Virus record (IMG/VR): IMGVR_UViG_3300037454_000319
Length of the DNA stretch: 64,000 nt
Reading direction: 5' to 3' (one strand)
Source: a virus
The translations under genes were made by a program, and so were the position numbers. The notes beneath the pieces were generated by a model. It ran no database searches and was not told the origin of the DNA. It saw only the letters and a list, made by a program, of their open reading frames with translations. Of the stretch, positions 2,580 through 41,788 are shown piece by piece (within the stretch, counting starts at the first letter, position 1; every line of letters begins with the position of its first letter).

Positions 2580-2582
2580 TCT

Positions 2583-3730: not shown

Positions 3731-3745
3731 TCGGCACCAGAAGAT

Positions 3746-3820: not shown

Positions 3821-3928
3821 ATTAGTTCGGTTTTACTTTGCTTCTTTATATAGCGTTTTCCACTAAGCCACATACCAGCTATGCTGTCGGTGGTAGTTTA
3901 AACCGTAAATCCATGTTAACGCTTCTGG

Positions 3929-3945
3929 TGGACAATATGGGAATC
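3929..3945. repeat. 17-bp direct repeat tggacaatatgggaatc (copy 1), truncated tRNA 3' segment flanking GIY-YIG gene
   Basis: identical 17-mer at 4659-4675 inside tRNA-like gene. Confidence 0.7.
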
Positions 3946-3946
3946 T

Positions 3947-4576: not shown

Positions 4577-4658
4577 AACTAATCAGCTCCTGTTATTTGT
4601 ATTCTACTACGTTAGTGTTAACCAAGAGTCACCGCGTGGAGGTGTAGTAACGACTCTC

Positions 4659-4735
4659 TGGACAATATGGGAATCGAACCCATCTGATTTCCTGTTTGCA
4701 AAACAGGCGACCACTCCATGCAGTCCCAAAGCCCA
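4659..4735 (-). pseudogene. tRNA-like gene (anticodon TGC, Ala-like loop TTTGCAA) with non-pairing acceptor stem; contains repeat copy 2
   Basis: good anticodon and T arms but 5'/3' acceptor strands not complementary; adjacent HE. Confidence 0.35.
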
Positions 4736-4763
4736 TTTAAAATTGTTTTTGTTCTCTCTTTAT

Positions 4764-4802
4764 TTTCTATATATTATATCATAATATATTAGAAAAGTCA
4801 AA
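4764..4802 (-). promoter_or_regulatory. conserved promoter copy 3
   Basis: -10 4773-4778, -35 4796-4801. Confidence 0.65.
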
Positions 4803-4839
4803 TTTTCTTTTTGCTGTGGGTTGCAGCCGTTATTTGTTC

Positions 4840-4913
4840 TGGAGCGAGATAAGGGAATCGAACCCTCGCCTCCTCCATGGCAAGGAGGAATTCTACCGCT
4901 AAACTAATCCCGC
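4840..4913 (-). tRNA. tRNA-Gly (GCC)
   Basis: loop TTGCCAT. Confidence 0.6.
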
Positions 4914-4919
4914 ATTAAT

Positions 4920-4994
4920 TGGTGGGCCTACGGGGACTCGAACCCCGAACTACTGATTAAAAGTCAGCTGTGTTGCCAATTACACCATAAGCCC
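4920..4994 (-). tRNA. tRNA-Lys (TTT)
   Basis: loop CTTTTAA. Confidence 0.6.
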
Positions 4995-5068
4995 ATTTCA
5001 ACGCTGGTGGTATCCAAGACACCTTTCCGCCGCCAGCTCGACGTTTCATAGGTCTTAAATTCAATAAT

Positions 5069-5155
5069 TGGTCGGCAGGGAAGGACTCGAACCTTCGATG
5101 TTTCAATGTCACGGATTTACAGTCCGCTGGTTTCGCCGCTTTCCACACCTGCCGA
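5069..5155 (-). tRNA. tRNA-Tyr (GTA), long variable arm
   Basis: 87 nt, loop CTGTAAA. Confidence 0.6.
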
Positions 5156-5251
5156 TATTTGCCTATTCATTTTCTACCTTTATAAAGGTACGTCTTATTG
5201 GAAAGGCTGTCCAGTTGACGGAAGGTTTATGAGTACAACCTACAAAACGAT

Positions 5252-5331
5252 TGGCGCCTCCAACGGGGCTCGAACCCGCAACCTCGCTGCGTGACAGGCA
5301 GGTGTTCTATCCTGATTTGAACTACAGAGGC
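5252..5331 (-). tRNA. tRNA-Asp (GTC)
   Basis: loop CTGTCAC. Confidence 0.5.
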
Positions 5332-5461
5332 ATCGTCAGTTGATTAAACGTGTTCATAGCAAATCTTCATTGACGGCGAGGGCTGACAAGTCTAATCTTG
5401 ACTCAGCTTTCCACAAACCACCGACGTGGGTGTGACCCACTACTTATGAACTTTTATTAAT

Positions 5462-5538
5462 TGGCGGGAAGTATAGGACTCGAACCTATGACACCGCGGT
5501 TAACAGCCGCGTGCTCTAACCAACTGAGCTAACAACCC
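5462..5538 (-). tRNA. tRNA-Asn (GTT)
   Basis: loop CTGTTAA. Confidence 0.6.
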
Positions 5539-5547
5539 ATTTTAAAT

Positions 5548-5622
5548 TGGCGGTCCAGAAGGGAGTCGAACCCTCGTCTTTCGGGAGACAACCGAACATT
5601 CTACACGTTAAACTACAGAACC
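5548..5622 (-). tRNA. tRNA, anticodon GTC? (loop TTGTCTC), encoded CCA
   Basis: cloverleaf plausible; pyrimidine at position 37 is unusual. Confidence 0.4.
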
Positions 5623-5666
5623 ATTTGATTGGAAGCTTTTCCTTCAGAGGACGGTTTACCAACCGA

Positions 5667-5708
5667 TTTTCTATATATATTATATCATGTTTTTCAAAAA
5701 AAGTCAAA
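5667..5708 (-). promoter_or_regulatory. conserved promoter copy 4 (drives tRNA array 3)
   Basis: -10 5679-5684, -35 5702-5707. Confidence 0.7.
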
Positions 5709-5715
5709 TTTTCTT

Positions 5716-6015
5716 TTAAAGTTTAATTACATCATCTTTCTCAAATCCTTCATCTTCAAGACGAGTGAAGAACTCATCTTCGTCTACTTCAGTTACTACA
5801 TAATCGCAGTTATCAAAGTAATAATCTTCATCTTCCTGAGAGTCGAAGCCTTCTCCAAAGGTATAGCCTTCAACTCCAATAACATTTTGTTCTGCCCAGT
5901 CATAAAGACCTTCTGCCATATAAGCATATACAGCATCTATATTATCTGCTTCAAAAAAGAAGACATTATCACTATTTTCGCAATAACCGTTATCGTATTC
6001 ACCAATAAACTTCAT
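5716..6015 (-). CDS. hypothetical acidic protein
   Basis: ORF track; RBS. Confidence 0.5.
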   Translation of the reverse strand: MKFIGEYDNGYCENSDNVFFFEADNIDAVYAYMAEGLYDWAEQNVIGVEGYTFGEGFDSQEDEDYYFDNCDYVVTEVDEDEFFTRLEDEGFEKDDVIKL

Positions 6016-6027
6016 TTCTTTTCCTCA

Positions 6028-6069
6028 CTTTCTATAATTATTATATCATAAATTCTAAGAAAAGTCAAA
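6028..6069 (-). promoter_or_regulatory. conserved promoter copy 5
   Basis: -10 6040-6045, -35 6063-6068. Confidence 0.7.
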
Positions 6070-6259
6070 TTTTTCTTTTTGTTTCTCTCCGTAAGCATCG
6101 GCGCCACGTAAAGGCGGAAACATTAGCCGATATTTCCTTACTACTCTCCAAATGGAGAACTTCAGCGGGCTTTCAACCGTACTACTGGCAGGTAGGTGTT
6201 ATAATACTGCCATACTATAACTGAGGGTTCATTTTCCTTTACTCACCCACAAGGGTAAT

Positions 6260-6336
6260 TGGTCCAGCCAGCGAGATTCGAACTCACGACCTCCGCGTTA
6301 TCAGCACGTTGCTCTACCTACTGAGCTATGACTGGA
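6260..6336 (-). tRNA. tRNA-Ile (GAT)
   Basis: loop CTGATAA. Confidence 0.6.
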
Positions 6337-6339
6337 TTT

Positions 6340-6415
6340 TGGAGCTGGTGGACGGATTCGAACCCCCGACCTGCTGATTACAAATCAGCTGCTCTACCGA
6401 CTGAGCTACACCAGC
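6340..6415 (-). tRNA. tRNA-Thr (TGT) copy 1
   Basis: loop TTTGTAA. Confidence 0.55.
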
Positions 6416-6474
6416 ATTTATGAGAGGCTGGGCTGAAGCTCCACTTAGTTTCCTCTCATTGAGGTTGTGCCCTC

Positions 6475-6552
6475 TGGAGGTAGCGGAGGGAGTCGAACCC
6501 TCGTCTTCGGTTTTGCAGACCGACGTCTTAGCCACTTGACTACGATACCTCC
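6475..6552 (-). tRNA. tRNA-Cys (GCA)
   Basis: loop CTGCAAA. Confidence 0.6.
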
Positions 6553-6573
6553 ACAGAGCACAACCATTAAAGG

Positions 6574-6741
6574 TTATGCACCTATTACATTCCAACACTC
6601 ATATTCGTATTTAATGTTCCAAGCACGCTCTTTTTCAAAAGCTTCTTTGTCTCGAAGCATTAAACCTTTGGTCTTATAGACGTCAATCACCTTTCTTGTT
6701 TTAGCAATTTCGTCTACCATATAAAGAATATATACACTCAT
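6574..6741 (-). CDS. small hypothetical protein (55 aa, MSVYILYMVDEIAKTRK...)
   Basis: not in ORF track (<60 aa); follows promoter copy 6 with purine-rich RBS. Confidence 0.3.
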   Translation of the reverse strand: MSVYILYMVDEIAKTRKVIDVYKTKGLMLRDKEAFEKERAWNIKYEYECWNVIGA

Positions 6742-6761
6742 GTTTCTTCTTTCCTTTCCGA

Positions 6762-6803
6762 TTTTCTATAATTATTATATCATAGATTTTGAAAAAAGTC
6801 AAA
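6762..6803 (-). promoter_or_regulatory. conserved promoter copy 6
   Basis: -10 6774-6779, -35 6797-6802. Confidence 0.7.
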
Positions 6804-6977
6804 TTTTCTTTTTGGTTTTTGAAATTCATACTCAGCCCCGCGCTTGCATCGACTTCCTTCTCACCGAATGAGAGCGTTCTACTTTATAAACTATCCCTGC
6901 GTTGGCTCATAAGCAAGGAGTGATAGGCTTAGAAACCTATTCCATATGAACTTCTGTGAGTTTGATTGGTAAACTCT

Positions 6978-7055
6978 GGTCTCCTCCAAGGGACTTGAAC
7001 CCTCATAAGACACAGCTTCGTAGGCTGCCGCATTCTCCATTATGCTAAGAGGAGA
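6978..7055 (-). tRNA. tRNA-Arg (ACG)
   Basis: loop CTACGAA; D-arm GCATAATGGAGAATGC. Confidence 0.6.
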
Positions 7056-7094
7056 TATTAGTGGGAATTAAAGTTTTTCCCACTCTTCATAAGT

Positions 7095-7170
7095 GGAGCT
7101 GATGACAGGAATCGAACCTGCAACCTTGTCCTTACAAGGGACCTGCACTACCTATTGTGCTACACCAGCA
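7095..7170 (-). tRNA. tRNA-Thr (TGT) copy 2
   Basis: loop CTTGTAA; same acceptor GCTGGTG as copy 1. Confidence 0.5.
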
Positions 7171-24278: not shown

Positions 24279-25211
24279 TTATCTATTCTTAAGCATATCT
24301 CTTACATATGTCATTGTAAGTGAACCACAAACCTTACCGAAGTTCTCGCAAGCGGTAACTACCTCTGGCTCCTCCTTACGGCAGTCCTCATACATCATCT
24401 TAGGAAGAACCTTTGCAATCGCACTCATGTCATGCTCGTCCCAATCAGGTCTGAGTTGCCCCTCGTCCACAAGCTTCTGGAGACACTTCTCAACTCTACG
24501 CTCAGTAGCGATTGATGCGACATACTGTCTCTCAGCCTCTCTCTTCTTAAGCTCCTCGGGGTCAACAGGCTTCTTATGGTCATGATGAACCTCAGAAAAC
24601 TTCTCTGCGACAATCTTGAGGTATGTAGGAAGTCTATTGCTCTTGTCATCAAGTCTATCCTGAGACTTAATTACAATACCCTCACCGCAAGGCTCTGCTC
24701 CGAGCATTGTTTGACCAACAAGCTCATATACAGTATCCCAACCTCTGAACTCGCCTGTGTAGAAAACAGGTACGAAACGGATTACTTGCTGTGTAAGCTG
24801 TGCCGCCTTCTCAAGTCCATTAAAGATTGCAAGTGTGTCGATATGTGGAAGGTATTGCTCAGTCTCAGTATCCCATACGTCGAACATATAGAAGTTCTTG
24901 TACTTGTCATCAGGATAACGGATAGTATGCTTTGTAAGCCACTCACCGAAGATTACGTATCTGCCGTGCTGAGTGAGCATGTCAATTTGAGATACCTTAA
25001 GTTGCTGTGCCCAATTCCAAAAACCATTGAGGTTATTGCTCTCATTGAGCTGGTTCTTACGAGAAAACGCAAGAACAGTATTTGTGTCGGGGTCGTATGT
25101 GAAGGAAGCGTTTGAACCGTCAACCTTCTCAGTAATTGTTATCTGCTCTCCAATGGTAAAAGCAACATCGTACTTCTCCTTGAAGCGCTCAATATCCATG
25201 TAATGCTTCAT
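24279..25211 (-). CDS. nucleotidyltransferase ligase, Rnl2-like RNA ligase (or ATP-dependent DNA ligase)
   Basis: motifs I EKVDGSN, III YVIFGEWL, IV EGIVIK, V YLKIVAEK. Confidence 0.55.
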   Translation of the reverse strand: MKHYMDIERFKEKYDVAFTIGEQITITEKVDGSNASFTYDPDTNTVLAFSRKNQLNESNNLNGFWNWAQQLKVSQIDMLTQHGRYVIFGEWLTKHTIRYPDDKYKNFYMFDVWDTETEQYLPHIDTLAIFNGLEKAAQLTQQVIRFVPVFYTGEFRGWDTVYELVGQTMLGAEPCGEGIVIKSQDRLDDKSNRLPTYLKIVAEKFSEVHHDHKKPVDPEELKKREAERQYVASIATERRVEKCLQKLVDEGQLRPDWDEHDMSAIAKVLPKMMYEDCRKEEPEVVTACENFGKVCGSLTMTYVRDMLKNR

Positions 25212-25227
25212 TATTTTCTCTCCTTAA

Positions 25228-28896: not shown

Positions 28897-29739
28897 TCAC
28901 TCCTTTAATTCCTTCTGTAAAGCTAACTTAATAATTGCAAATTTATATCTATCCATCTTTCCAATAAGCTCTTCATTTACCTTTGGTGCAACTTTAAGTA
29001 ATTCATCAACCTGTGCCTTAGACCAATCTCTTAAAGCCTGACCGAAAGCAATAGCCTCTTCTTTTGAAAAGCAACCTTTCTGTGTCTTTACGGCATAAAT
29101 ATCATCCCACTCTTTAAGAGCTTCCTCATCAATACCAGATGGCTTCAATAACTCTGCATATGAGCTATGCATAAATCTTTTCAACATTGAAGCCAATCTC
29201 ATTTCGTGAGAAAGTTGCTTTGCCGCGTAACCAAACTTATTTACCTCATCAACTTGAACTGGGTATGGGTGGTCAAGAGCATGGAACTTTTCCTCAATCA
29301 TACCGCCCATTGCCTTGACAGCAGATGGAGCATTTGCAAAAGCAATTTGTTCTGCATTTTCTCTAAACCATGACATAAGCAAGTAGTATTCTGGGTTAAT
29401 CCAAAACCAGTCTGAGAACAAAAGCTCAACAAAGTTTGAAGCGCCCTTCTTCCACTGGTCAATCATAAGACGAATATCCTTAACATCAACCTGACCATTA
29501 ATCTCAGGAAGGTCAAGTGTTACACTTGTAGGTTTAACATTAAATACTACATCTTCAAGCTTAGGAACAACTACTGCCTTATAATCGAAGTCACTACCTT
29601 CTCTTTGGAGGTTGTAGTTCTGAGCACCGTAGAGCGCGACATAAACTACTTCGTAACCTTGGTCTTTAAGAAACTCTACTGTTTTAAGCAAGTTCTGACC
29701 TTCAAGAGAAGCCAGTGCCTTTGAACGCATTTCTTCCAT
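28897..29739 (-). CDS. putative minimal nucleotidyltransferase (Pol-beta-like GS...DxD)
   Basis: YGAQNYNLQREGSDFDY motif. Confidence 0.4.
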   Translation of the reverse strand: MEEMRSKALASLEGQNLLKTVEFLKDQGYEVVYVALYGAQNYNLQREGSDFDYKAVVVPKLEDVVFNVKPTSVTLDLPEINGQVDVKDIRLMIDQWKKGASNFVELLFSDWFWINPEYYLLMSWFRENAEQIAFANAPSAVKAMGGMIEEKFHALDHPYPVQVDEVNKFGYAAKQLSHEMRLASMLKRFMHSSYAELLKPSGIDEEALKEWDDIYAVKTQKGCFSKEEAIAFGQALRDWSKAQVDELLKVAPKVNEELIGKMDRYKFAIIKLALQKELKE

Positions 29740-29803: not shown

Positions 29804-30289
29804 TTAACTATATTTGTAAGCAACAAAAATAACGTTTTGGTCTTTCTCAATTTCCTCAAGTACACTTTTCATAATTGACCAGTCGCCGCCACCAAGACCG
29901 CAACCAAAATAACAAGGTATTGCTATTGGAATTTGGTTTTCCCAGTTACAATGTTCACTACATCTCCAATTCTCTATTTCATTAGTAAATGCTTTCTTAA
30001 CTGCATCATAATCAGTATAACACTTATCTGTACCATAATCTTCTTGTCCGAAAACATTCCAAATACATCTATTTTCGTCAACACGATAATAGCATACAGT
30101 TCCAAGAGGTGACTCGCCATAGTTACACTCTTTATAATCTTGAATAAAAGTAGCATATTCTTTAAACACATTTGGATAGCGGTCTCTTATCTGCTTTGCT
30201 AAGCCGCCACCCATAACTCCTTTACAGTTGACTTGATGAGCTATGATTTTAATATCTGTATTTAATAAATCACCATGTGTAATTATCAT
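29804..30289 (-). CDS. macro-domain protein (ADP-ribose binding/processing)
   Basis: MIITHGDLLNTDIKIIAHQVNCKGVMGGGLA classic macro motif; RBS GGGAGGAA. Confidence 0.65.
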   Translation of the reverse strand: MIITHGDLLNTDIKIIAHQVNCKGVMGGGLAKQIRDRYPNVFKEYATFIQDYKECNYGESPLGTVCYYRVDENRCIWNVFGQEDYGTDKCYTDYDAVKKAFTNEIENWRCSEHCNWENQIPIAIPCYFGCGLGGGDWSIMKSVLEEIEKDQNVIFVAYKYS

Positions 30290-30624
30290 TCTCGTTCCTC
30301 CCAATTTACAATTACTCTGAAACAGTCTGGTATGTCATATCCATGGAGAACATGATAATCTGCTTTATACCCAACTGATGCATATATGGTCACAAGGTCA
30401 TCAGCAATTTTTCTATTCTCTTCTGTAGTATTTCCTTGTGGCCATATATCTACTGAAGCTTCAGTCATTCCACTAAAACTACATTGAGCAATTTCATTTT
30501 TTAATTTCTCATTATACACCCATAAATCTCGCATTACCTTATCAGAAAAATGCTCTGTCCTCATTCTTGCCAATGTTATATCATAAGCACCAATACTATC
30601 CCAAAAAGCATTAAAACTATTCAC
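30286..30624 (-). CDS. hypothetical protein
   Basis: ORF. Confidence 0.45.
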   Translation of the reverse strand: MNSFNAFWDSIGAYDITLARMRTEHFSDKVMRDLWVYNEKLKNEIAQCSFSGMTEASVDIWPQGNTTEENRKIADDLVTIYASVGYKADYHVLHGYDIPDCFRVIVNWEERE

Positions 30625-31616: not shown

Positions 31617-33065
31617 TCACTTCCAAGAGAACTCTGGACGGCTAAGTATTTCTACCATAGCCTGATAAGCGTTCTTCTCAATGAGTTCAAGCAAGAACTT
31701 GAAAGGACCTACACCAGCACCACTACAGTAACTGATGTTATCTGAAGTTGTAGCCATATAGTTATCCTGACGAGCATCAACATTCCAACTTACGACCTTA
31801 GTCTCTGGAAGACCAGCTTCACGGAGTCTTCTGTTCCACTTACCAACAATAGACTCGCCCTGATTACGGCCACAGTCATAGTCAAACTGACCATCTGAAA
31901 TTACAACAAGAGCCTTTGGTACTTCTCTTGTTCTAACTGCAACCTCATAAATCTTTGCGAAAGCCTTATCGAGGTCTGTATTGTAACCAACACCGACACT
32001 CTTAGCTCTATTTACGCAACGAGTGATGTCCCAGCTATCCTCAATCTTGACAAAGTAAGGGTCACGAGAATAAGTCATATACAAACCATGATATGCACCC
32101 TTATTACGCTGAGCGAAATAAGTTGCAAGACCAATAGATGTAGCCATAGGCTTACCAGTCATAGACTCAGAAACATCTGCCATAACAACAACGTCAAAGT
32201 CGCCCTTTACATAGTTAGGAAGTTTGTTCCACTGAGCCTTATCAAGAACACTATTTGTATCATTCTTATAAAGTATATTGTATACTATATCATATGGATA
32301 AAGAGTTGACGCTTTTACATCAGCTTCACCCTTATCAAGGGCCGCCATGTAAGCTGAATATCTTTCATTGTCATTCTTATTAAATGCCTTAGAATATCTA
32401 CGTGCAGCAATTGATGGAACAGTCTCGTAGTTAATATTACTCCAGTTCTTAGCACTCATATCTACCTCAACAACGTCAAGATACTTACGAAGCTTAGAAA
32501 GAGTCTTACGATATGTTCTTGGCTTAATACCAGCTACCTTACAAATACGACGTGCGCGAGCGCAAGTCTCCTTAGATGAAGTGTTAATAGAAGGCATCCA
32601 CTTAGCAAGAAGTGAAATAGGAGCTTTTGCGGCTACACCTTCGATATCCTTCATAAGCTGTGCAATAACAAAGTTAATTACATCATCGCCGATAGAAGTA
32701 TCAAGCAACTCAAAAAGGTCATCATATCTACCAACATTTACAAGAGTCTGGAAATTACGCTTTACCTTCTCAGGGTTAAGACGTACAAGCTCCTTCAAAA
32801 GGATACGACCGATACGTCTCTCACCAAGACCAGCATTACGAATATCACGAGCATAAAGAATGAGGTTGTCTGCCAACTCTTCATTCTCAAGACGAGCATC
32901 TCTCCAGTCCATTATTATATCCTGCTCATTACGATTTCTCATGCCACCTATCTTAGCATAAAAATCAAGAAGTGCGCCGCCATTTGTAGAACGATATGCT
33001 ACAGCACCATTCTCAGTATAAGTCTCATTAGCCATTGTCTTACATACATTTGCAAAATTACTCAT
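31617..33065 (-). CDS. DUF2828/TROVE-like N-terminal domain + C-terminal von Willebrand A (vWA) domain protein
   Basis: vWA MIDAS DVVVMADVSESMTG...ALVVISDGQ; N-term TENGAVAYRSTNGGALLDFYAKIGG. Confidence 0.55.
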   Translation of the reverse strand: MSNFANVCKTMANETYTENGAVAYRSTNGGALLDFYAKIGGMRNRNEQDIIMDWRDARLENEELADNLILYARDIRNAGLGERRIGRILLKELVRLNPEKVKRNFQTLVNVGRYDDLFELLDTSIGDDVINFVIAQLMKDIEGVAAKAPISLLAKWMPSINTSSKETCARARRICKVAGIKPRTYRKTLSKLRKYLDVVEVDMSAKNWSNINYETVPSIAARRYSKAFNKNDNERYSAYMAALDKGEADVKASTLYPYDIVYNILYKNDTNSVLDKAQWNKLPNYVKGDFDVVVMADVSESMTGKPMATSIGLATYFAQRNKGAYHGLYMTYSRDPYFVKIEDSWDITRCVNRAKSVGVGYNTDLDKAFAKIYEVAVRTREVPKALVVISDGQFDYDCGRNQGESIVGKWNRRLREAGLPETKVVSWNVDARQDNYMATTSDNISYCSGAGVGPFKFLLELIEKNAYQAMVEILSRPEFSWK

Positions 33066-33107
33066 TACACATTACTCCTTCAAGATAAATTATTTTTAGT
33101 TTGCTGT

Positions 33108-33153
33108 TTTATCTTACTTATATATTATACTATAAAATATTAAAAAAGTCAAA
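33108..33153 (-). promoter_or_regulatory. conserved promoter copy 19
   Basis: -10 33124-33129, -35 33147-33152. Confidence 0.65.
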
Positions 33154-33343
33154 TTTTTGGGGGGAAAATAAGGGCAACGTCGCAACGCCACCCTTACTCG
33201 GCTACTGCCGATAGTGCTTATCTCCCTGCACGGGCTCGCTATCCTTACGAATAGCTATCCTTTTAACGTCTTGATGGACGAGCGTGGATTTACCACATAC
33301 GCTACCACTTAATTTTTTATAGACGGAAATTAAGAAAACCAAC

Positions 33344-33436
33344 TGGCGCCTACTCTCGGACTCGAACCGAGACACCGCTTGCGCGACTACTACTGGTTTT
33401 CAAGACCAGTCCCTTACCAGTTAGGGTTAAGTAGGC
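33344..33436 (-). tRNA. tRNA-Ser (TGA), long variable arm
   Basis: 93 nt, loop CTTGAAA. Confidence 0.6.
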
Positions 33437-33457
33437 AAAAACAAGATACGTTTTTTC

Positions 33458-33488
33458 TCGTGCCTCTACCAATTGGGCTACTCCCCGA
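33458..33488 (-). pseudogene. tRNA 5'-half fragment (acceptor CGGGGAG + D-arm GCCCAATTGGTAGAGGC)
   Basis: D-arm identical to tRNA 34495..34571; no anticodon or T arm follows. Confidence 0.5.
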
Positions 33489-33491
33489 TAT

Positions 33492-33568
33492 GTTGCCCAT
33501 GACGGACTCGAACCATTATTCTCCCTACTTTCGTAGGGCGTAAACACCATGTATACTACATAGGCAAT
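33492..33568 (-). tRNA. atypical tRNA-like gene (acceptor GCCTATG/CATGGGC, TA at 8-9, GNRA hairpin CCCTAC-GAAA-GTAGGG, T-loop GGTTCGAGTCC)
   Basis: cloverleaf-like fold but anticodon loop CGAAAGT lacks U33. Confidence 0.3.
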
Positions 33569-33569
33569 C

Positions 33570-33615
33570 TGGTCGGGGAGGATGGGATTCGAACCCACAC
33601 TCTCGTGCTCCTAAA
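33570..33615 (-). pseudogene. tRNA 3'-half fragment (TAG loop, T-arm GTGGGTTCGAATCCCAT, acceptor CTCCCCG-A-CCA)
   Basis: 3' acceptor strand perfectly complementary (8 nt) to 5' fragment 33458-33488 located downstream: permuted order. Confidence 0.45.
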
Positions 33616-33644
33616 CGCAATAGATAGTTGCTGACGTATCTTTA

Positions 33645-33720
33645 TGGTGCCGAGGGGGAGACTCGAACTCCCAACGCGAGGCTCTTCAGGCCTCCGCTCT
33701 ACCGTTGGAGCTACCTCGGC
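33645..33720 (-). tRNA. tRNA-Phe (GAA) copy 2
   Basis: loop CTGAAGA. Confidence 0.55.
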
Positions 33721-33744
33721 ATTATCAAGACAGTTATACTTATA

Positions 33745-33805
33745 ACTCTACCATTGAGCTACGCGGCACTCTCGTACCACGGTGGGATTCGAACCCACAT
33801 CCTCC
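33745..33805 (-). pseudogene. tRNA fragments: 3'-like (GTGGGTTCGAATCCCAC) followed by 5'-like (GCCGCGTAGCTCAATGGTAGAG)
   Basis: partial arms only, no complete cloverleaf. Confidence 0.35.
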
Positions 33806-33859
33806 TTCAGACAAAAAGAAAAAGTTAAATGTTTTAAATGTTTTGCTGAACTGTCTTAT

Positions 33860-33936
33860 TGGTCGGAGCGGCGGGATTCGAACCCGCAAGAAACTGTTTT
33901 TGAGACAGCCGTGTCTGCCAATTGCACCACGCTCCG
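33860..33936 (-). tRNA. class-I (short variable arm) tRNA with anticodon CAA (Leu codon UUG)
   Basis: acceptor CGGAGCG/CGCTCCG perfect, A73, loop CTCAAAA, 5-nt variable loop. Confidence 0.5.
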
Positions 33937-33939
33937 ATT

Positions 33940-34015
33940 TGGGTGGAAAGATGAGACTCGAACTCACACCTTCATGGGCCACAACCATGCGCTCTACCGT
34001 TAAGCTACTCACCAC
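33940..34015 (-). tRNA. tRNA-His (GTG)
   Basis: loop TTGTGGC, C73. Confidence 0.5.
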
Positions 34016-34170
34016 ATCAATAAGACATACTATTGCGAACTTGCCGTATGTCAGGGCGGCTCATTTAATTTCTCCTCGTTAGGGATGTGCCGCGATGCCA
34101 TAACCGCGGAGTTGTCATATTGATTCTCCCAAACCAATAGGACGTAATAAAAATGCAATTGCCTTTCGGC

Positions 34171-34244
34171 TGGTCGGCACAGGAAGATTCGAACTTCCGC
34201 TCCTTTCTTGTAAGGAAAGGTGACTCCCTTTATCGTATGCGCCG
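34171..34244 (-). tRNA. tRNA-Val (TAC)?
   Basis: loop CTTACAA; atypical D-arm. Confidence 0.4.
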
Positions 34245-34271
34245 ATTAACAAGACTCTTTATACCTTTACG

Positions 34272-34345
34272 GTCCGGAAGAGGGATTCGAACCCTCATAT
34301 GTACGATTTTAGGTCGTATGACTTAGCCACTTTGTCTATTCTGGA
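34272..34345 (-). tRNA. class-I tRNA with anticodon TAA (Leu codon UUA), C33
   Basis: stem TACGA/TCGTA, loop CCTAAAA. Confidence 0.4.
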
Positions 34346-34494
34346 AAGAAATGTTGCTGAAGAGTCTTTAATTTGGTTCGGGTATGCTTATCGGAGTCAA
34401 GTACTCGCAGTTCCTCTTTCGAGGTATTTTCTTCGGAGTAAAGACCTTAAGGTTCGCGTAACCTCTTGTGCCCTAACCCATATCCGAAACCCGA

Positions 34495-34571
34495 TGGTGC
34501 CGATAGAGGGATTCGAACCCACACTGTCCAGTTCCTAAGACTGGTGCCTCTACCAATTGGGCTATGTCGGC
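34495..34571 (-). tRNA. class-I tRNA with anticodon TAG; D-arm and anticodon arm resemble bacterial tRNA-Leu(TAG) but long variable arm absent
   Basis: GCCCAATTGGTAGAGGC + CCAGTCTTAGGAACTGG, A73, 77 nt. Confidence 0.5.
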
Positions 34572-34594
34572 ATTAATGTCGGACAAACCGACAT

Positions 34595-34846
34595 TTATTT
34601 TGCTAATACTACTATTAGTGGAATGTGTCCTGTTTTATCATATGCCATAGCTAAAGGATATTTTTCAATTAGTTCTTTGTTATTTACTACTATCTGAGTC
34701 ATCACCATAGCAATACTTTCTTTTAATCCATCTTCATTGCAGAAGTAAGGACCGCCAGAATCTCCGCCATGGTCTACAGCATCTATAATAGTGCTATTAT
34801 AGGCTTTTATAAAATTAAGAAGGTCATAACTATCTTTAAAAACCAT
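34595..34846 (-). CDS. hypothetical protein
   Basis: ORF. Confidence 0.45.
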   Translation of the reverse strand: MVFKDSYDLLNFIKAYNSTIIDAVDHGGDSGGPYFCNEDGLKESIAMVMTQIVVNNKELIEKYPLAMAYDKTGHIPLIVVLAK

Positions 34847-34857
34847 AATATTCTCCT

Positions 34858-35412
34858 TTACTTAGAAAGCATATTTGCGATACCAGAAGCCGCATAGCTG
34901 TCTGGCTTAATACGAGACTCAAAACCCATGCTATCAATATAGCCACAGATTTCTGTAATCATCTCATGTGTCTTGCCGCGCTTACCAATGTCAGCGTGAA
35001 TAGCAAAACCAAGCTGTTCCTTATTGTGCATCTCGTCAAGGTCAATATCATAATCAATTAACTCATATGCAAGAGCATCATAGAAACCTGTTGCATTTTG
35101 AATAGAACGGAATGTCTCTTCATAAATTTTTGTCTTTAAAACAGATATTCTTGGAATATCCTCTACCTTGTAAAAGAAAATGCCGCCATCACCAACACGG
35201 CAGACAGCAATTACTTCTACCATTCTTGTATACTTGTGGTTCTGAGAGTCAGTTCCTATTGTAATATCATATTCGGCATCAGGCTTATCTGCAATAAATT
35301 TTGCAATAATCTTAATAACCTCATCAAACTTTACCTTAGTCTTTGCTCTGTTGCCACGAGTAAATATCTTGTCGGCAATCACGTCAATCTCTCCTTTTCT
35401 AACTATATTCAA
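34858..35412 (-). CDS. hypothetical protein, possible RNase H-like fold (motif ITIGTDSQ)
   Basis: ORF; weak motif only. Confidence 0.4.
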   Translation of the reverse strand: MNIVRKGEIDVIADKIFTRGNRAKTKVKFDEVIKIIAKFIADKPDAEYDITIGTDSQNHKYTRMVEVIAVCRVGDGGIFFYKVEDIPRISVLKTKIYEETFRSIQNATGFYDALAYELIDYDIDLDEMHNKEQLGFAIHADIGKRGKTHEMITEICGYIDSMGFESRIKPDSYAASGIANMLSK

Positions 35413-35546
35413 GACGATTTTATAAATTGGGCTCTTCTTAATGGAAAAAAAAGAAATTCAATTTGAAAAGTTTGCAGAAATCGTCTTAGTGGTGATAATA
35501 CGTGCCGCGGCACCACAGACCGCTATATGTGGTCGCACGTATTCTC

Positions 35547-35632
35547 TGGTCGGCTCGGTGGGACTCGAACCCACATGCCCTTACGGGCACCAGAACCTTA
35601 ATCTGGCGCGTATACCAATTCCGCCACGAGCC
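35547..35632 (-). tRNA. tRNA-Leu (AAG), class II with Leu-type variable arm; A34 unusual for bacteria
   Basis: 86 nt, loop TTAAGGT, variable arm GCCCGTAAGGGCA. Confidence 0.5.
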
Positions 35633-35711
35633 GTTGGTTGCTGATAAAGTCCAGCTTACTACATATCTGTCTTTAATAAACGAGGACAACATTTGTTCTT
35701 ACACTCGTAAG

Positions 35712-35787
35712 TGGTCGGAGATGCGGGACTCGAACCCACAGCCTCTGCGTCCCAAGCGCAGCCGTCTACCAAATTGGCGTAATCCCC
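35712..35787 (-). tRNA. tRNA-Pro (TGG)
   Basis: loop CTTGGGA. Confidence 0.6.
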
Positions 35788-35796
35788 GATTTTAAA

Positions 35797-35872
35797 TGGT
35801 GGACCTGAAGGGAGTCGAACCCTCGACCTCCTGCTTGCAGGGCAGGCGCTCTCCCAATTGAGCTACAGGCCC
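35797..35872 (-). tRNA. tRNA-Ala (TGC) with G3-U70
   Basis: acceptor GGGCCTG/CAGGTCC, loop CCTGCAA. Confidence 0.55.
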
Positions 35873-36490
35873 ATTAATTCTTGACAACTTTATAAAAAGA
35901 ACATTGTCGGTTTTTATTCGCCGTACTCATACAACGCTGCACATTATTCAGTCACAGTGGCGATAAGTCTGAGCCCCAGAGCCGTCGCTCTGAAACTTCT
36001 TACCGCGAGTCCGAAGACTCCAAGCACTGAGGGGAATCTTTCTACCCCCAACTTTCACCCATCATTCAGAATTTGATAATTATAATACTTTCTATCATCA
36101 AAACCAAATCTGAGCCTTGGGCTACTCGTACCACCATCGGGTTTCCTTTCCATTTCTGAAAAGGTTATAGGCTCAACCCCATTGCTTTGCATTCCCTGTA
36201 TTTGCTCACATCTTGCGGACGTGGTCTGCAGGGTTCTTCCCATCTGGGCGTCTATTGTTGGGGCAACCAGTTTAGGTGTACCATTGCTTCACGTTGCACC
36301 TGTGCCACTACTTCTTCATTGGTGGCTGGTATACCACCTGCCCATATCCCCTTTCGGTTCAATGGCCGCTCCCGTTTTGAGGTATCCCTCTGACGAAAAC
36401 GAGACAGTTCCATAGTGCCCATGCAGAGTTGATTAGACCCTCATTTTAACACATGGTTACAACATACTTTTTATGAAGTTGTCAAGATAA
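35873..36490 (-). ncRNA. ~620-nt GC-rich (~48%) noncoding island between tRNA-Ala and a tRNA fragment; possible TTGACA-N17-TTGTAA promoter near 36440-36470
   Basis: no ORF >62 aa in any frame; many GC hairpins; adjacent HNH endonuclease. Confidence 0.3.
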
Positions 36491-36491
36491 G

Positions 36492-36560
36492 TGGTCGGCG
36501 AGATGGGATTCGAACCCACACTGAATGGATTTTCGTACTACTCTATATCGCTATAGCCGC
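36492..36560 (-). pseudogene. tRNA 3'-fragment / pseudo-tRNA (GTGTGGGTTCGAATCCCATCTCGCCGACCA)
   Basis: good T-arm and CCA but 5' half not tRNA-like. Confidence 0.4.
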
Positions 36561-36608
36561 ATAATGCGTTGTAGTCTGGACTTAGTCTTTACCATATTCA
36601 TATAGAAC

Positions 36609-37124
36609 TTAGGTAGCTGGTGTAAAGTCTCTACACATAGATTTTAGACGTACATTTCTACCACGATAAGTTTCTGTAAGAGCATGACAATTTGGGCATA
36701 AATAACGAAGATTAGATAATTCATTATTAGTATTATCTCCATCAATATGGTCAATTTCTAATGAAATTATCCCACCTTGCCAAGAACCATCACAACCACA
36801 ATTAATACATTTATAATCAAGAAGTTTATATCTTTCAACATATCCTCTTAATCCTTTTTGGCTAATTGGGCTGTTTTTAATGAAGACTTCTTCTAATGTA
36901 TATTTCTCTTTACGTTTAAGTGAAGCATTATCATCTTTTGTAAGACCTTTACTCCAACCTTGACCTTTAAAATGAGAAACATCAATTCCAAATTCTTCAA
37001 TTTTGTTCTTTAGAGTTTTTTGTGCTCCACCGCCTTGTGCACGTCCCGATTTTCTCAGAACTTCTGCATAAGAAAAGCTTTCTGCACAAACTTTCTCTAA
37101 CCACTCTTTAGTATATTTCTGCAT
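36609..37124 (-). CDS. HNH homing endonuclease
   Basis: C-terminal EIDHIDGDNTNNELSNLRYLCPNCHALTE HNH motif; sits in tRNA region. Confidence 0.75.
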   Translation of the reverse strand: MQKYTKEWLEKVCAESFSYAEVLRKSGRAQGGGAQKTLKNKIEEFGIDVSHFKGQGWSKGLTKDDNASLKRKEKYTLEEVFIKNSPISQKGLRGYVERYKLLDYKCINCGCDGSWQGGIISLEIDHIDGDNTNNELSNLRYLCPNCHALTETYRGRNVRLKSMCRDFTPAT

Positions 37125-37420
37125 TTTATCACCTCAATTATAAGGTAGGAAGACGCAGAAATTACTCAAAACTTTTCGTCTGCCTAAAATCCTTGCACGG
37201 CGTTCTGTGTTCGCCTTCGCCGTTTTAGCCAGCTTCTACTCTCAGAGTTTTCCTCTGAGGCACTCTCTACTATTGAAGTAGCATTACATAGTAACAGAAC
37301 ACATCAAAGTCCATTGCCTCTGCCTGTTGCGCTACTCGCCGTTTGGTTGCCATAAGGTTCGCAAGCCACACATCAACTTTTTATTAAAGTGAGAGTTTCA
37401 TTTGTTCTAAAACTCACTAT

Positions 37421-37494
37421 TGGTTGCGGCCCAAGGATTCGAACCAAGAACTTCTGGTAATGAGCCAGATATTATGCCTTTTCACTAAACCGCA
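37421..37494 (-). tRNA. tRNA (CAT) copy 3, weak T-stem
   Basis: loop CTCATTA, acceptor TGCGGTT/GGCCGCA. Confidence 0.4.
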
Positions 37495-37510
37495 ATATAT
37501 TCTCTTTAAC

Positions 37511-37552
37511 TTTTCTAAAATTATTATATCATAATTTCTAAAAAAAGTCAAA
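37511..37552 (-). promoter_or_regulatory. conserved promoter copy 20
   Basis: -10 37523-37528, -35 37546-37551. Confidence 0.7.
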
Positions 37553-38290
37553 TTTTCTTTTGTCTAAGTCATTTCGTAAGCACTCTCACCACGTGAAGGT
37601 AGACTTAATTGAGAGTATTTTTTGTTAATGTCTGGTGCCGCCACATCATCCTGCACACAGGAGACAGGGTACTCGAACCCCTCAACAACCTTAACAAGGG
37701 AATTTCAACCCATCTTGACAATTATAAAGCCGCCAAGCGAAACGGCTTTGGCATTTTATCCTCTTAATCGAGAGGCGCTTACCATCGCGCGGTCATACCT
37801 TCTGTATGAGCCTTTGTAATGTCGTCAGGTTCCCACACTATCGCAGTAAACTCGCCGCTTAACCATCAAGTTTAAGGATTATAATATATTCAAACTTGAA
37901 AAATATATACTTCATTCTTCCTTTTTACATCGTCAGCAGTAGATGTGTAGCATATTATCGAAATGCCATCACGCCGCTTATCCAACAGCGGTAGTAGAAC
38001 CGTATCGTAGGCAAACGCCGCTTAACCAACCGCGGTAGTAGGAAAAGAGAAACAGTTTATACTGCCATCACACAGTCGGGTAGGTCTGTGATGGGTACTA
38101 CCCAATTAGGGCTTTTAGAGTTTGGTACGGTCTCAAAAGATAAACCCATAGAACTCATACCGTGGCAATTTAGTGTCATCGTCTCGCACGACGAGAGTTT
38201 TAACGTCTTTACTTTGACAGCGCCGCAACCAGCAACGTTGCACTTGTTTTGCATTTCATTTTGCAGGTCTGTGAAAACAAGAAACCTTTG
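37553..38290 (-). ncRNA. ~740-nt noncoding region upstream of tRNA-Gly with tandem hairpin repeats (acgccgcttaaccaaccgcggtagtag x2-3 at 37850-38045)
   Basis: no credible ORF; direct repeats 37971-38002 and 38014-38045 each form CCGC...GCGG hairpins. Confidence 0.3.
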
Positions 38291-38294
38291 ACCT

Positions 38295-38369
38295 TGGAGC
38301 GGAATACGAGACTCGAACTCGCAACACCTGCTTGGAAGGCAAGGATGTTCCCAATTACACCAATTCCGC
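38295..38369 (-). tRNA. tRNA-Gly (TCC)
   Basis: loop CTTCCAA. Confidence 0.6.
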
Positions 38370-38449
38370 ATTAACAAGACACTTATAAATAGCTACTTTT
38401 GATTAACCGTCAAATGCTTTTTTCTATAAGAAATTTGCTGAATGTGTCT

Positions 38450-38490
38450 TTCAATATAAATATTATATCATAATTTATTTTAAAAGTCAA
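38450..38490 (-). promoter_or_regulatory. conserved promoter copy 21 (spacer 16)
   Basis: -10 38462-38467, -35 38484-38489. Confidence 0.6.
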
Positions 38491-38504
38491 ATTTTCGACT
38501 TCTA

Positions 38505-38790
38505 AATTTCTTTAAAACCCTTGCTTGTACATCGAATCCTCGTATTATATCCACAGTCACATCGTGATTTACTCCCACACAAGAGGGCTACCATGGAGAA
38601 GGGGCACGCCCCGAGGTGGGCGGCAATTACAGAGAGCGCTATATTGGCTGATATAACGCCCAAAGGAACTCTGTCTACACGTGGTAGATGAGCTATCGCA
38701 TTTCTGCGACCCCGCACAGCGGGTAGCGGTGTCGGATACTCCGCCTTAAGAGATGAACTACATATCATCGTAGAGGTTATAATAACCTCT
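38505..38790 (-). ncRNA. ~285-nt GC-rich noncoding region downstream of promoter 21 and upstream of tRNA-Ser (candidate structured RNA / leader)
   Basis: ORF 38502..38768 has implausible composition; hairpins ggggcacgcccc, cccgcacagcggg. Confidence 0.3.
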
Positions 38791-38884
38791 TGGCGCGGAG
38801 AGAGGGACTCGAACCCTCGCGGCGGTTATTAGCCGCCCTACTCCCTTAGCAGGGGAGCCTCGTCACCAACTTGAGTACCTCCGC
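38791..38884 (-). tRNA. tRNA-Ser (GCT), long variable arm
   Basis: 94 nt, loop CTGCTAA. Confidence 0.6.
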
Positions 38885-38985
38885 ATTAATATCCGCTGAG
38901 CATCTTATTGGAACGCTTTCACCTTGCGAGACCTCTATTGTTTATTTGCTGGCAGAATTTGAACCATTAACCATAGCGAATATCT

Positions 38986-39058
38986 GGTGGGACTGGGAAG
39001 ATTCGAACTTCCGTACGACCGTTATGAGCGGTCAGTCCTGCCATTAGACGACAGTCCC
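38986..39058 (-). tRNA. tRNA-Met/Ile2 (CAT) copy 4
   Basis: loop CTCATAA. Confidence 0.55.
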
Positions 39059-39113
39059 ATAAAGAAAGGAAAGGGGCATACTTTACAAATGGCTATGCCA
39101 GACCAGAATCAGT

Positions 39114-39187
39114 TGGCTTCTGCGAAGGGAGTCGAACCCCTATTCTAAGAGCCAAAATCTTATGTCCTACCATTAGACGACGCAGAA
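39114..39187 (-). tRNA. tRNA-Gln (TTG)
   Basis: acceptor TTCTGCG/CGCAGAA, loop TTTTGGC. Confidence 0.5.
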
Positions 39188-40870: not shown

Positions 40871-41788
40871 TTAGTGCGCTGCTCTATCTGCTTCGTTAAG
40901 TAATGCAAGGTGTGCCATAAATTCTGCATCAAAACGCTGAGCAAGTTTCTCTACATAACCAGACTTATAGTGGTCCATATGGTGTTGAATTAAGTTTGCA
41001 ATGTATAAGCTCTGCCACTGGTCTGATGCATGAGATAAGTACATATATGCACTAACGTTTTCGTGATTGTAGTAGTGAGCTTCTTCTGTCGGCTCATTAC
41101 GTGCATTATGGAATACCTTACAATAAGGCTTTCCAAGGTCATGATAACGTGCCGCCACCTGAATCCACCAGAACTCTGCCCCTGGCATACGGTTATTGAG
41201 CTTAAGTTCCTGACGCTTTCTCTTTATAATGAAGTCCTCTGCAAGAACCATGTGGTGTCCGATTGTCTCAGAATGGTGGTGATTATCATGGGAAATTTTC
41301 ATTGCCTTAGCAAGTTCATCTTCCAAATATTCATTATCTAATGAGTTACCGTACATAACGATTTCATCCCAACCCTCAGACTCATGTGGCACTTCGAAGT
41401 TTCTCAACATACGGTCAAGAGCATAATCAGGAACTTGACGCTCACGACCTGCATTCTGCTCCTTCACAACCTCGAAAGGCGGCACAACAAGTACGCAAAT
41501 CTTTTGAACATTAGGAATATGTGAAAGTTCCTTTAATAAGTTAATACGACGCTTAGCATTAATGTTTGTTGCATCATAGAATACATCTGCACCCGCCTTT
41601 AAAAATTCTCTTGTTCTCTTTAACATTATGTCAAATACTTCGCCATTATGCTCTTGGTCATTTACATCTCCGAATACTTCTTCACGAATTGCATCTGAAG
41701 AAACATACTCAGCATATAAATAATTTTCAGCATAAACCGTGGACTTACCAGCTCCTGCAATGCCAACAGCCATATAAAATCTTGCCAT
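40871..41788 (-). CDS. polynucleotide 5'-kinase (P-loop) fused to HD phosphohydrolase domain; putative RNA-repair kinase-phosphatase
   Basis: Walker A GIAGAGKST; HD motif HSETIGHHM...HDLGK. Confidence 0.6.
   Translation of the reverse strand: MARFYMAVGIAGAGKSTVYAENYLYAEYVSSDAIREEVFGDVNDQEHNGEVFDIMLKRTREFLKAGADVFYDATNINAKRRINLLKELSHIPNVQKICVLVVPPFEVVKEQNAGRERQVPDYALDRMLRNFEVPHESEGWDEIVMYGNSLDNEYLEDELAKAMKISHDNHHHSETIGHHMVLAEDFIIKRKRQELKLNNRMPGAEFWWIQVAARYHDLGKPYCKVFHNARNEPTEEAHYYNHENVSAYMYLSHASDQWQSLYIANLIQHHMDHYKSGYVEKLAQRFDAEFMAHLALLNEADRAAH

Follow-up and report, generated by a model that had tools for sequence, protein, structure and literature searches.

The window analyzed in this study is a stretch of viral DNA of 64,000 nucleotides (nt), IMG/VR record IMGVR_UViG_3300037454_000319. 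Its G+C content is 37.9%, and the 38 tRNA genes that ARAGORN predicts in it all lie on the minus strand and form two arrays (1667-7169 and 33344-39187). In two segments of the second array, 33442-33642 (unit 1) and 33726-33858 (unit 2), the 3′ half of a tRNA-like sequence precedes the 5′ half. A gene for a protein of 482 amino acids (aa), here called the Ro-like protein, follows on the same strand. Judging from the sequences and from the predicted structure of this protein, the two units are very probably Y RNA-like tRNA mimics to which the Ro-like protein would bind. An earlier, sequence-only reading had proposed that 33458-33615 is either a circularly permuted tRNA gene or the scar of a tandem duplication or deletion. 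The circularly permuted topology proved to be real and under selection, but neither of the two proposed meanings fits.

Unit 1 is placed between tRNA-Phe (33645-33720) and tRNA-Ser (33344-33436). Along the minus strand, it consists of the 5′ strand of a closing stem, the motif CAGCAA, a pre-T-arm region, the T-arm, the acceptor 3′ strand with ACCA, an insert, the acceptor 5′ strand, the D-arm and the 3′ strand of the closing stem (coordinates are given in Table 1). The order of 3′ half, tRNA-like gene and 5′ half described by the sequence-only reading was confirmed. That reading had missed the complementarity of the leader and trailer, which are exact reverse complements over 9 nt and form an uninterrupted helix of 9 base pairs (bp). 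The pre-T-arm region between CAGCAA and the T-arm has 29 nt, and a single C separates the T-arm from the acceptor 3′ strand. The acceptor strands are exactly complementary over 7 bp, or over the 8 bp claimed before if T33488/A33573 is counted. GAU lies between ACCA and the nested element, and CAUAU lies between the nested element and CGGGGAG. In the 5′ portion, CGGGGAG is followed by TA, by the D-arm GCCCAATTGGTAGAGGC (33462-33480) and by ACGAGAAAAA, after which the closing stem 3′ strand begins. As had been noticed, the D-arm is shared with an intact tRNA: the 21-nt sequence TAGCCCAATTGGTAGAGGCAC is identical to the D-arm of tRNA-Leu(UAG) at 34495-34571.

The nested element, for which a GNRA hairpin had been described, indeed carries a GAAA-capped hairpin of 6 bp in place of the anticodon arm. 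It has no CCA. When the two halves of unit 1 are joined, no anticodon arm is obtained, and no complementary 5-bp stem with a 7-nt loop was found in the flanking sequence. The "TAG anticodon loop" formerly assigned to the 3′ half has no anticodon stem. It is part of a conserved pre-T-arm region (..UUAGGAGCACGA..), which is also present in a distant phage locus (L028, see below).

Unit 2 lies between tRNA-Leu(CAA) and tRNA-Phe and follows the same plan. Its closing stem, AAGACAGUU/AACUGUCUU, pairs at 9 of 9 positions; AAGACAGUU-CAGCAA occupies 33857-33843, and AACUGUCUU (33735-33727) is followed by G. Between the two strands are the T-arm (33782-33798), the acceptor hairpin CGUGGUA-CGAGAG-UGCCGCG (33762-33781), in which 7 of 7 pairs are formed including two G-U pairs, and UA with the D-arm (33745-33761). 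The second 3′-before-5′ pair suspected at 33745-33805 is real, and spans 33727-33857.

Chen et al. (2014) described that the ends of Y RNA pair at the position of the tRNA anticodon stem, so that the tRNA-like domain appears circularly permuted (PMC4201824). YrlA RNAs are encoded within 4 kb of the Ro60 gene and on its strand, usually several per locus (PMC4201824). Here, the order of T-arm, acceptor-like stem-loop and D-arm was found in both units and in more than 30 loci. The RNA ends are paired (9/9 bp) in both units, and a Ro-like gene is present within ~4 kb on the same strand: the units are 380-800 nt upstream of it, and it begins about 380 nt downstream of unit 1. In a permissive Rfam scan, unit 2 was matched to positions 26-82 of YrlA (RF02553) with 31.5 bits (E 5e-5 in a small region). 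The YrlA-aligned consensus of unit 2 comprises the T-arm, the acceptor-like hairpin, GUA and the D-arm.

Homologues of the Ro-like protein were used for an alignment-based scan of IMG/VR, which gave 80 loci on large phage contigs (numbered with the prefix L); a query with the single protein retrieved none. In a strict scan, we searched for a T-arm with a 7-nt strand immediately behind it, then the complement of this strand and a D-arm. Such modules were detected in many loci, outside the tRNAs called by ARAGORN and on the strand of the Ro-like gene, and all acceptor sequences differ. False positives of the strict scan came from tandem tRNAs with the same acceptor (Leu-Leu in L011/L012 and Ser-Ser in L036/L042/L050), and a relaxed scan was noisy. 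All 24 modules inspected are flanked by the stem 5′-(U/A)AAGA-N5 ... N5-UCUUG-3′ with (U/A)CAGCAA, two variant closing stems among them being UAGACGCA/UGCGUCUA and AGAGCGC/GCGCUCU. The N5 pairs covary (CAGUU/AACUG, UACGU/ACGUA, UAGGU/ACCUA, CCAUU/AAUGG, CACUA/UAGUG and UGUUA/UAACA). In all members, CAGCAA starts 0-2 nt past the 5′ strand of the stem. A seed alignment of 16 sequences has 98.9% of its cells paired, versus 70% after shuffling and 34-47% with a slid partner, and 18 of its 23 pairs show double changes. The permuted arrangement is far beyond chance. It recurs in dozens of loci with acceptors that differ yet are always paired.

A covariance model of the family, R1, was then searched at E ≤1 against 83 sources (about 0.8 Mb, both strands), among them 82 related phage loci. 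All of the 264 matches were on the strand of the Ro-like gene. Among the 150 best matches, of which 128 are distinct, pairing in the closing helix reaches 98.3%, and each of the 7 modelled pairs shows double changes. There are 61 matches to the full module; 50 are clean and come from 32 of the 83 sources, and the remaining 11 are false positives that overlap real adjacent tRNA pairs. Short forms were found in 46 of the 83 sources. In the other tRNA array of the window, 26 kb from the Ro-like gene, R1 gave weak matches that overlap real tRNAs only. Because of its insert of ~75 nt, window unit 1 is matched only locally (33452-33615, 22.6 bits, filters off). The unit 1 copy of L003, which is outside the seed, scores 68 bits (E 1.5e-11). 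Full units were also detected beside the same protein in the isolated phages Escherichia phage Alf5 (64 bits), Rumpelstiltskin (58 bits) and Bacillus phage Tsamsa (52 bits), and none of these three is annotated as RNA. In the mycobacteriophage Rumpelstiltskin, the unit is just downstream of the "Ro-like" gene. The Alf5 unit (L085 6419-6546; NC_031082.1 about 25087-25214) lies under an opposite-strand coding sequence for a "hypothetical protein" (L085 6321-6644), which may be spurious.

The window was compared with the syntenic contigs L003 and L001, whose Ro-like proteins are 94% and 83% identical to that of the window, and with the relatives L006 (64%) and L007 (61%). In L003, unit 1 has no nested element, and its acceptor reads CUCCGCC-GCCA-AAUAU-GGCGGAG. 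From the window to L003, C-G becomes G-C at acceptor pair 1-72 and G-C becomes C-G at pair 3-70, and in the T-stem one G-C pair is replaced by A-U (GUAGG/CCUAU in L003). These changes are fully compensatory. Unit 2 differs by two one-sided changes, G-U to G-C and C-G to U-G, and pairing is kept in both. In L001/L002, the nested element is free-standing between tRNA-Phe and tRNA-Ser without permuted flanks. In L006, it is at the same place as in window unit 1. L007 (2530-2730) has at this spot a different nested element of ~113 nt, GUGGUAG...CUAUCAC-ACCA, which was not called by ARAGORN and could be a tRNA with a long insert. The nested element is conserved among relatives, with some compensatory pairs. 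Since it is absent from L003, alone in L001/L002, the same in L006 and different in L007, the comparison indicates that it is a separable passenger of the acceptor loop, and that the flanks act jointly as a helix.

Some further observations concern these loci. The repeat noticed earlier at the inner ends of both portions of unit 1 is present twice, as GCACGAGA at 33601-33608 (before the T-arm) and at 33456-33463 (after the D-arm). The two copies are not complementary. The repeat is kept in L003 and L006, and a search for a role of GCACGAGA found none. L003 possesses an extra Y-like RNA (3005-3131, 53.7 bits) with a GCCA-type acceptor between tRNA-Met and tRNA-Ser; at this site, the window (38885-38984, minus strand) and L001 have an unrelated 100-nt spacer. 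This presence and absence shows rapid gain and loss of Y-like units. The segment at 38945-38985, proposed as a lone 3′ fragment, is not a tRNA fragment: it has no T-stem, and the spacer there is unrelated to the Y-like RNA of L003. Megablast of window positions 33000-36000 against isolated phages gave only tRNA-Leu matches, to Streptomyces phages; thus, no close isolated relative was found.

For the protein, Pfam gave DUF2828, DUF7788 and a weak VWA_2 match. The AlphaFold model (50 homologues) has a mean predicted local distance difference test score of 92.5 and a predicted template modelling (TM) score of 0.90. It shows a ring of helical repeats and a C-terminal vWA domain with a MIDAS motif (for metal ion-dependent adhesion site), the architecture of Ro60. 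In the Foldseek search against PDB, the top 13 matches are all Ro60/TROVE proteins, aligned over ~500 columns, the full length (TM about 0.58, E 1.7e-8 to 1.8e-4). This set contains Ro60 of Thermus phage phiLo (9kop, 9l5y), which is the best match, Xenopus and human Ro60, and D. radiodurans Rsr. The matches ranked below the 13 are isolated vWA domains only. The MIDAS residues D297, S299, S301, T363 and D391 (DxSxS..T..D) are invariant in the protein family. Because of these structure matches and the invariant MIDAS, we conclude that the protein, as modelled, is remotely homologous to Ro60 at the level of structure. In cluster L mycobacteriophages, this family already carries the annotation "Ro-like RNA binding protein". 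The protein has more than 4,700 metagenomic relatives. By tblastn, the DUF2828 protein was detected in 708 records of isolated phages, often adjoining tRNA arrays; the groups are Felixounavirus, A511/P100-like Listeria, Staphylococcus, Enterococcus, Campylobacter, Vibrio, Aeromonas, Tsamsa-like Bacillus, cluster L mycobacteriophages and Lak phages.

Several points weigh against the identification as Y RNA-like RNAs with a Ro60-like partner. Pfam TROVE (PF05731) does not match the 482-aa protein, and phmmer and profile searches of PDB sequences gave vWA domains and not Ro60, so that the kinship with Ro60 rests on a predicted structure. In Rfam, unit 2 is below the 69-bit gathering threshold of YrlA, unit 1 is unmatched, and none of 15 related loci has a YrlA match at the threshold. 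The YrlA 5′ motif GNCGAAN0-1G is absent, and (U/A)CAGCAA is found at that place instead. The extra C between the T- and acceptor stems of unit 1 could weaken recognition by ribonuclease P (RNase P). Furthermore, the first scan demanded perfect pairing in the acceptor and T-stem, and these helices of the seed were therefore partly selected for. The independent evidence consists of the closing stem, the D-stem, the comparison with L003 and the model hits outside the seed.

Other explanations were considered. The units might be structured RNAs of the tRNA operon that are independent of the Ro-like protein and serve, for example, as decoys for host enzymes that target tRNAs or as processing punctuation; the closing stem would then be a signal for processing. 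They sit among tRNAs, from which spacers of 2-6 nt separate them, RNase P and modification enzymes would be drawn to their tRNA-like modules, and one unit retains an anticodon-like loop. However, the linkage to DUF2828 is tight (in loci retrieved via that gene), and the matches lie within a few kb of the gene on its strand. The array at 1667-7169 has only the weak matches over real tRNAs, and a minimal copy is placed on the gene's own ribosome-binding site (RBS). We regard this explanation as improbable.

It is very improbable that unit 1 is a true circularly permuted tRNA gene, whose product is circularized or joined in trans to a decoding tRNA as in Cyanidioschyzon merolae. The 3′ half does precede the 5′ half on one strand, the acceptors are complementary, ACCA is encoded, the leader and trailer pair, and genes for an RNA ligase and a kinase-like protein are nearby. 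However, joining the D-arm and T-arm sides yields no anticodon stem-loop, and the flanks form a plain 9-bp helix with the conserved CAGCAA, not a bulge-helix-bulge. Moreover, unit 2 and many homologues have short-loop acceptors (UUCG, GAAA or other) without CCA, and the identical stem and motif also occur without any tRNA-like module. To our knowledge, the splicing pathway for permuted tRNAs of the algal/archaeal type is absent from the host system.

The same low standing applies to the view that the units are functionless debris of a decaying tRNA array, left by tandem duplication, deletion or a homing endonuclease. [quoted passage not shown] Against this, the comparison of relatives shows compensatory changes in every helix, and the layout is kept across loci whose proteins are 40-65% identical; the scar proposed by the sequence-only reading does not hold for these reasons. 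The strand bias (264/264) and the conserved closing stem and motif also argue against debris. Two related candidates were rejected. ACGAGAG as a recurring recombination or cleavage motif is not enriched (6 matches versus 4.6 expected), and integration of a small circle at a repeat, or a miniature inverted-repeat transposable element with terminal inverted repeats, was dropped because the flanking inverted repeat is a covarying RNA stem. Finally, a two-piece (permuted) transfer-messenger RNA (tmRNA) gene, to which the permuted tRNA-like domain without an anticodon arm and a weak local Rfam tmRNA match to the T-arm (11-14 bits) would point, deserves next to no credence, since ARAGORN, which is able to detect permuted tmRNA, finds none in the window, ~20 nt from the D-arm to the next tRNA leave no room for a tag frame, and the D-arm is complete, unlike that of tmRNA.

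With the units read as Y RNA-like tRNA mimics, their acceptors fall into two classes. In the loop-closed class, the acceptor strands are joined by CGAGAG (unit 2), UUCG (L006), GAAA (L028 and L076) or UUU (L009 and L026), and CCA is absent. In the NCCA class, the acceptor 3′ strand is immediately followed by NCCA and then by an AU-rich spacer. This class has at least 10 independent homologues, examples being window unit 1, L003 (two), L005, L006 (two), L007, L008, L018, L039 and L048/L051. We regard the class as real because, in each case, CCA would be expected at this place by chance with a frequency of 1/64. In M. smegmatis, the acceptor stem of YrlA has 7 bp; RNase P cleaves this RNA both in vitro and in vivo, and CCA is added, resulting in a two-piece RNA (PMC4201824). 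By analogy, unit 1 is probably also cut by RNase P into a two-piece, CCA-ended RNA. The 7-bp stem, the encoded NCCA, the spacers that resemble tRNA intergenic regions, and the whole tRNA-like inserts tolerated at the acceptor loop all suggest this maturation. The expected RNase P cuts are 5′ of the nested element, which would be freed, and 5′ of CGGGGAG, and the spacer would be trimmed. What would remain is a Y RNA in two pieces, joined through its acceptor and closing stems and bearing a tRNA-like 3′ end, ACCA. The expected ends of the pieces are a 3′ end at ...CUCCCCGACCA and a 5′ end at CGGGGAG.

We propose the following model. Both "halves" and their flanks would constitute one gene for a Y RNA-like non-coding RNA, which would be transcribed with the tRNA array. 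The ends would pair as a 9-bp stem (AAGA-N5 / N5-UCUU-G), and this stem and CAGCAA would bind the Ro60-like protein. The interior would be a tRNA-shaped module without an anticodon arm, composed of the T-arm, the 7-bp acceptor stem, U8-A9 and the D-arm. This module reads as a circularly permuted tRNA because the RNA ends lie at the position of the anticodon stem. Conservation of Ro60 and Y RNAs extends from bacteria to humans, and their function is well known in a few species only. In the phage, a Ro-like/Y RNA particle might serve during infection in the quality control of RNA, in tRNA repair or in counter-defence, a role suggested by the large tRNA set and by the neighboring genes for an RNA ligase, a kinase/HD protein, a nucleotidyltransferase and a Macro domain protein.

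These neighbors are encoded on the minus strand. They give the neighborhood an RNA-repair flavor: the RNA ligase (24279-25211), the AAA_33+HD kinase-like protein (40871-41788) and, among 28897-29739, 29804-30304 and 34858-35412, an RlaP-like nucleotidyltransferase, a Macro domain protein and an RNaseH_like protein (PF04308). L001 and L003 also contain a tRNA-synt_2c-like domain and Band_7.

The predicted ACCA end of unit 1 has discriminator A, and its D- and T-arms are identical to those of the tRNA-Leu genes of the phage. Leucyl-tRNA synthetase is not known to read the anticodon (E. coli tRNA-Leu identity). For these reasons, aminoacylation of the processed unit 1, or mimicry of tRNA-Leu, is conceivable. 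As a speculative extension, which we consider rather unlikely to hold as a whole, DUF2828 proteins and RNAs with the AAGA-stem and CAGCAA would form a distinct and widespread phage Ro/Y-RNA system. In this system, the acceptor loop would be a slot for a tRNA-like gene and RNase P would produce a two-piece ACCA RNA, with possible aminoacylation or tRNA-Leu mimicry in repair or counter-defence.

The window contains other elements with the same closing stem and motif (Table 1). A third unit encloses an unpermuted tRNA-like module, which ARAGORN calls tRNA-Leu(UAA) at 34271-34345; the homologue in L003 is called tRNA-Phe(AAA). In contrast to the other tRNAs of the window, the module lacks CCA. It is probably the module of another Y-like RNA and not a decoding tRNA. 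A minimal stem with CAGCAA is found directly before the Ro-like gene not only in the window but in many loci, for example at L003 7950-7985, L006 3951-3985 and L026 3948-3982. This hairpin at the RBS fits the stem and motif being the putative protein-binding site, and suggests translational autoregulation. Two short forms are also present.

Table 1. Coordinates in the window of the candidate Y RNA-like units, their parts and the Ro-like gene
Feature	Position	Strand	Remarks
Y RNA-like gene 1 (candidate), whole unit	33442-33642	minus	closing stem to closing stem, with nested tRNA-like element inside
Unit 1 closing stem, 5′ strand AAGAUACGU	33634-33642	minus	exact reverse complement of 33443-33451
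Unit 1 CAGCAA motif, proposed site for Ro-like protein binding	33628-33633	minus	near-invariant in alignments
Unit 1 T-arm GTGGGTTCGAATCCCAT, RNA GUGGG-UUCGAAU-CCCAU	33582-33598	minus	
Unit 1 acceptor 3′ strand CUCCCCG (33574-33580) and ACCA (33570-33573)	33570-33580	minus	
Nested tRNA-like element in acceptor loop, ~74-75 nt	33493-33566	minus	ARAGORN "tRNA-???"
Unit 1 acceptor 5′ strand CGGGGAG (33481-33487), U8 A9 and D-arm GCCCAAUUGGUAGAGGC	33462-33487	minus	
Unit 1 closing stem, 3′ strand ACGUAUCUU	33443-33451	minus	followed by G33442
Y RNA-like gene 2 (candidate), no insert	33726-33858	minus	R1 93.4 bits, E about 3e-17; inverted repeat
Third unit, closing stem AAGACUCU/AGAGUCUU with CAGCAA	34250-34369	minus	kept in L001, L003, L006 and L007
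Minimal 36-nt hairpin UAAGAUAAA-ACAGCAA...UUUAUCUUG	33081-33116	minus	abuts Shine-Dalgarno AAGGAG of the Ro-like gene
Short form, closing stem with CUGCAA, no tRNA-like module	35410-35488	minus	R1 40.3 bits
Short form, closing stem with CAGCAA, no tRNA-like module	38375-38451	minus	R1 37.4 bits
Gene for Ro60-like protein (predicted), 482 aa	31617-33065	minus	DUF2828 + DUF7788/vWA; phrog_850 "RNA-binding protein"

Other observations concern the tRNA array itself. The segment at 36492-36560, formerly taken as a lone 3′ fragment, is actually the 3′ exon of tRNA-Leu(UAA), the 5′ exon of which starts at 37341. A 773-nt insert containing an HNH ORF (36609-37124) interrupts this gene (36492-37341, minus strand) between U34 and A35. 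The insert ends in G and is at the classic group I intron site of tRNA-Leu, and Rfam detected no such intron in this split gene. L001 and L003 have an intact 77-nt tRNA-Leu gene with the anticodon stem CAGGU/ACCUG, versus AUGGA/UCCAU in the window. A full-length ROOL RNA (RF03087, 263 bits) is located inside the array at 35889-36480 (minus strand), beginning 12 nt past the CCA of the split tRNA-Leu and ending 16 nt before tRNA-Ala. The "tRNA-Leu" genes for CAA, UAG and UAA (33860-33936, 34495-34571 and 36492-37341) encode tRNAs of 75-77 nt with a short variable loop, unlike the long-arm tRNA-Leu of bacteria; only Leu(AAG) at 35547-35633 has a long arm. Short-loop tRNA-Leu is also present in Felixounavirus Alf5 (L085 8201-8275 and 8778-8852).

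The RNA family described here offers a candidate RNA partner, with its stem, motif and tRNA-like module, for a large family of phage proteins whose annotation goes no further than "DUF2828" or "RNA-binding protein". The protein family spans the well-studied Felix O1-like, A511/P100-like, Tsamsa-like and cluster L mycobacteriophage groups. The units are miscalled or missed by tRNA finders: they appear as "tRNA-???" or as a CCA-less "tRNA-Leu", or are hidden under spurious opposite-strand ORFs. On inspection by eye, they resemble permuted or broken tRNAs. R1 makes the Y RNA guesses of two earlier reports (PMC11482910; PMC12282133) directly testable.

With permuted tRNA genes of C. merolae, other algae and archaea, the units share the upstream 3′ half, the short acceptor linker and the pairing of leader and trailer. 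In contrast, the algal and archaeal genes give full decoding tRNAs by way of a circular intermediate and a cut at a bulge-helix-bulge. The likeness to the YrlA type (PMC4201824) extends to the module order with U8-A9, the paired ends, the variable pre-T-arm region and the Ro60-type gene nearby. As in YrlA/YrlB loci, several RNAs are present per locus, and short ones lack the tRNA-like module. The presumed co-transcription with tRNAs is comparable to Yrn2-tRNA-Asp-Yrn1 of D. radiodurans. The 7-bp acceptor stem is that of M. smegmatis YrlA, and the RNase P cut and CCA end would be shared with it. Unlike in YrlA, the motif is (U/A)CAGCAA after an AAGA-N5 stem, and CCA is encoded, not added. YrlA loci also differ from the present ones, which have a whole tRNA-like gene in an acceptor loop, one unpermuted unit and an RBS copy, and the partner protein here is DUF2828/DUF7788, not TROVE.

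Phage Ro60 proteins with Y-like RNAs are known for the TROVE type (PMC4201824; PMC12135203; PMC7824862), and the phage examples of Chen et al. are mycobacteriophages, CcrColossus and Bacillus phage G (PMC4201824). phiRo60 of Thermus phage phiLo, with Yrl1/Yrl2 (PMC12135203), resembles the window system in the Ro60-fold ring with vWA and in the Y-like RNAs just upstream. Its protein gave the window protein its best match by structure, with sequence similarity undetectable by hidden Markov models. However, the phiLo Yrl RNAs were delimited through a CGAA motif located in a bulge and have not been presented as tRNA mimics. In Felixounavirus Bas63, the Ro60-like gp130 counters ppl defence, and "some tRNA genes ... 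are possibly Y RNAs" (PMC11482910). In Listeria phage CKA15_055 (P100-like), three very abundant RNAs upstream of a Rsr-like gene "may be Y RNAs" (PMC12282133). Both proteins belong to the same family as the window protein and adjoin tRNA arrays, and the RNAs are undefined in those papers. A literature search on "DUF2828" gave no relevant paper; the list of 22 phages of Chen et al. is outside that search. The DUF2828-linked RNAs thus appear to be undescribed as a family, but known as a kind. Unlike the reports on Bas63 and CKA15_055, the present analysis delimits a specific RNA family, which includes the unit of Felixounavirus Alf5.

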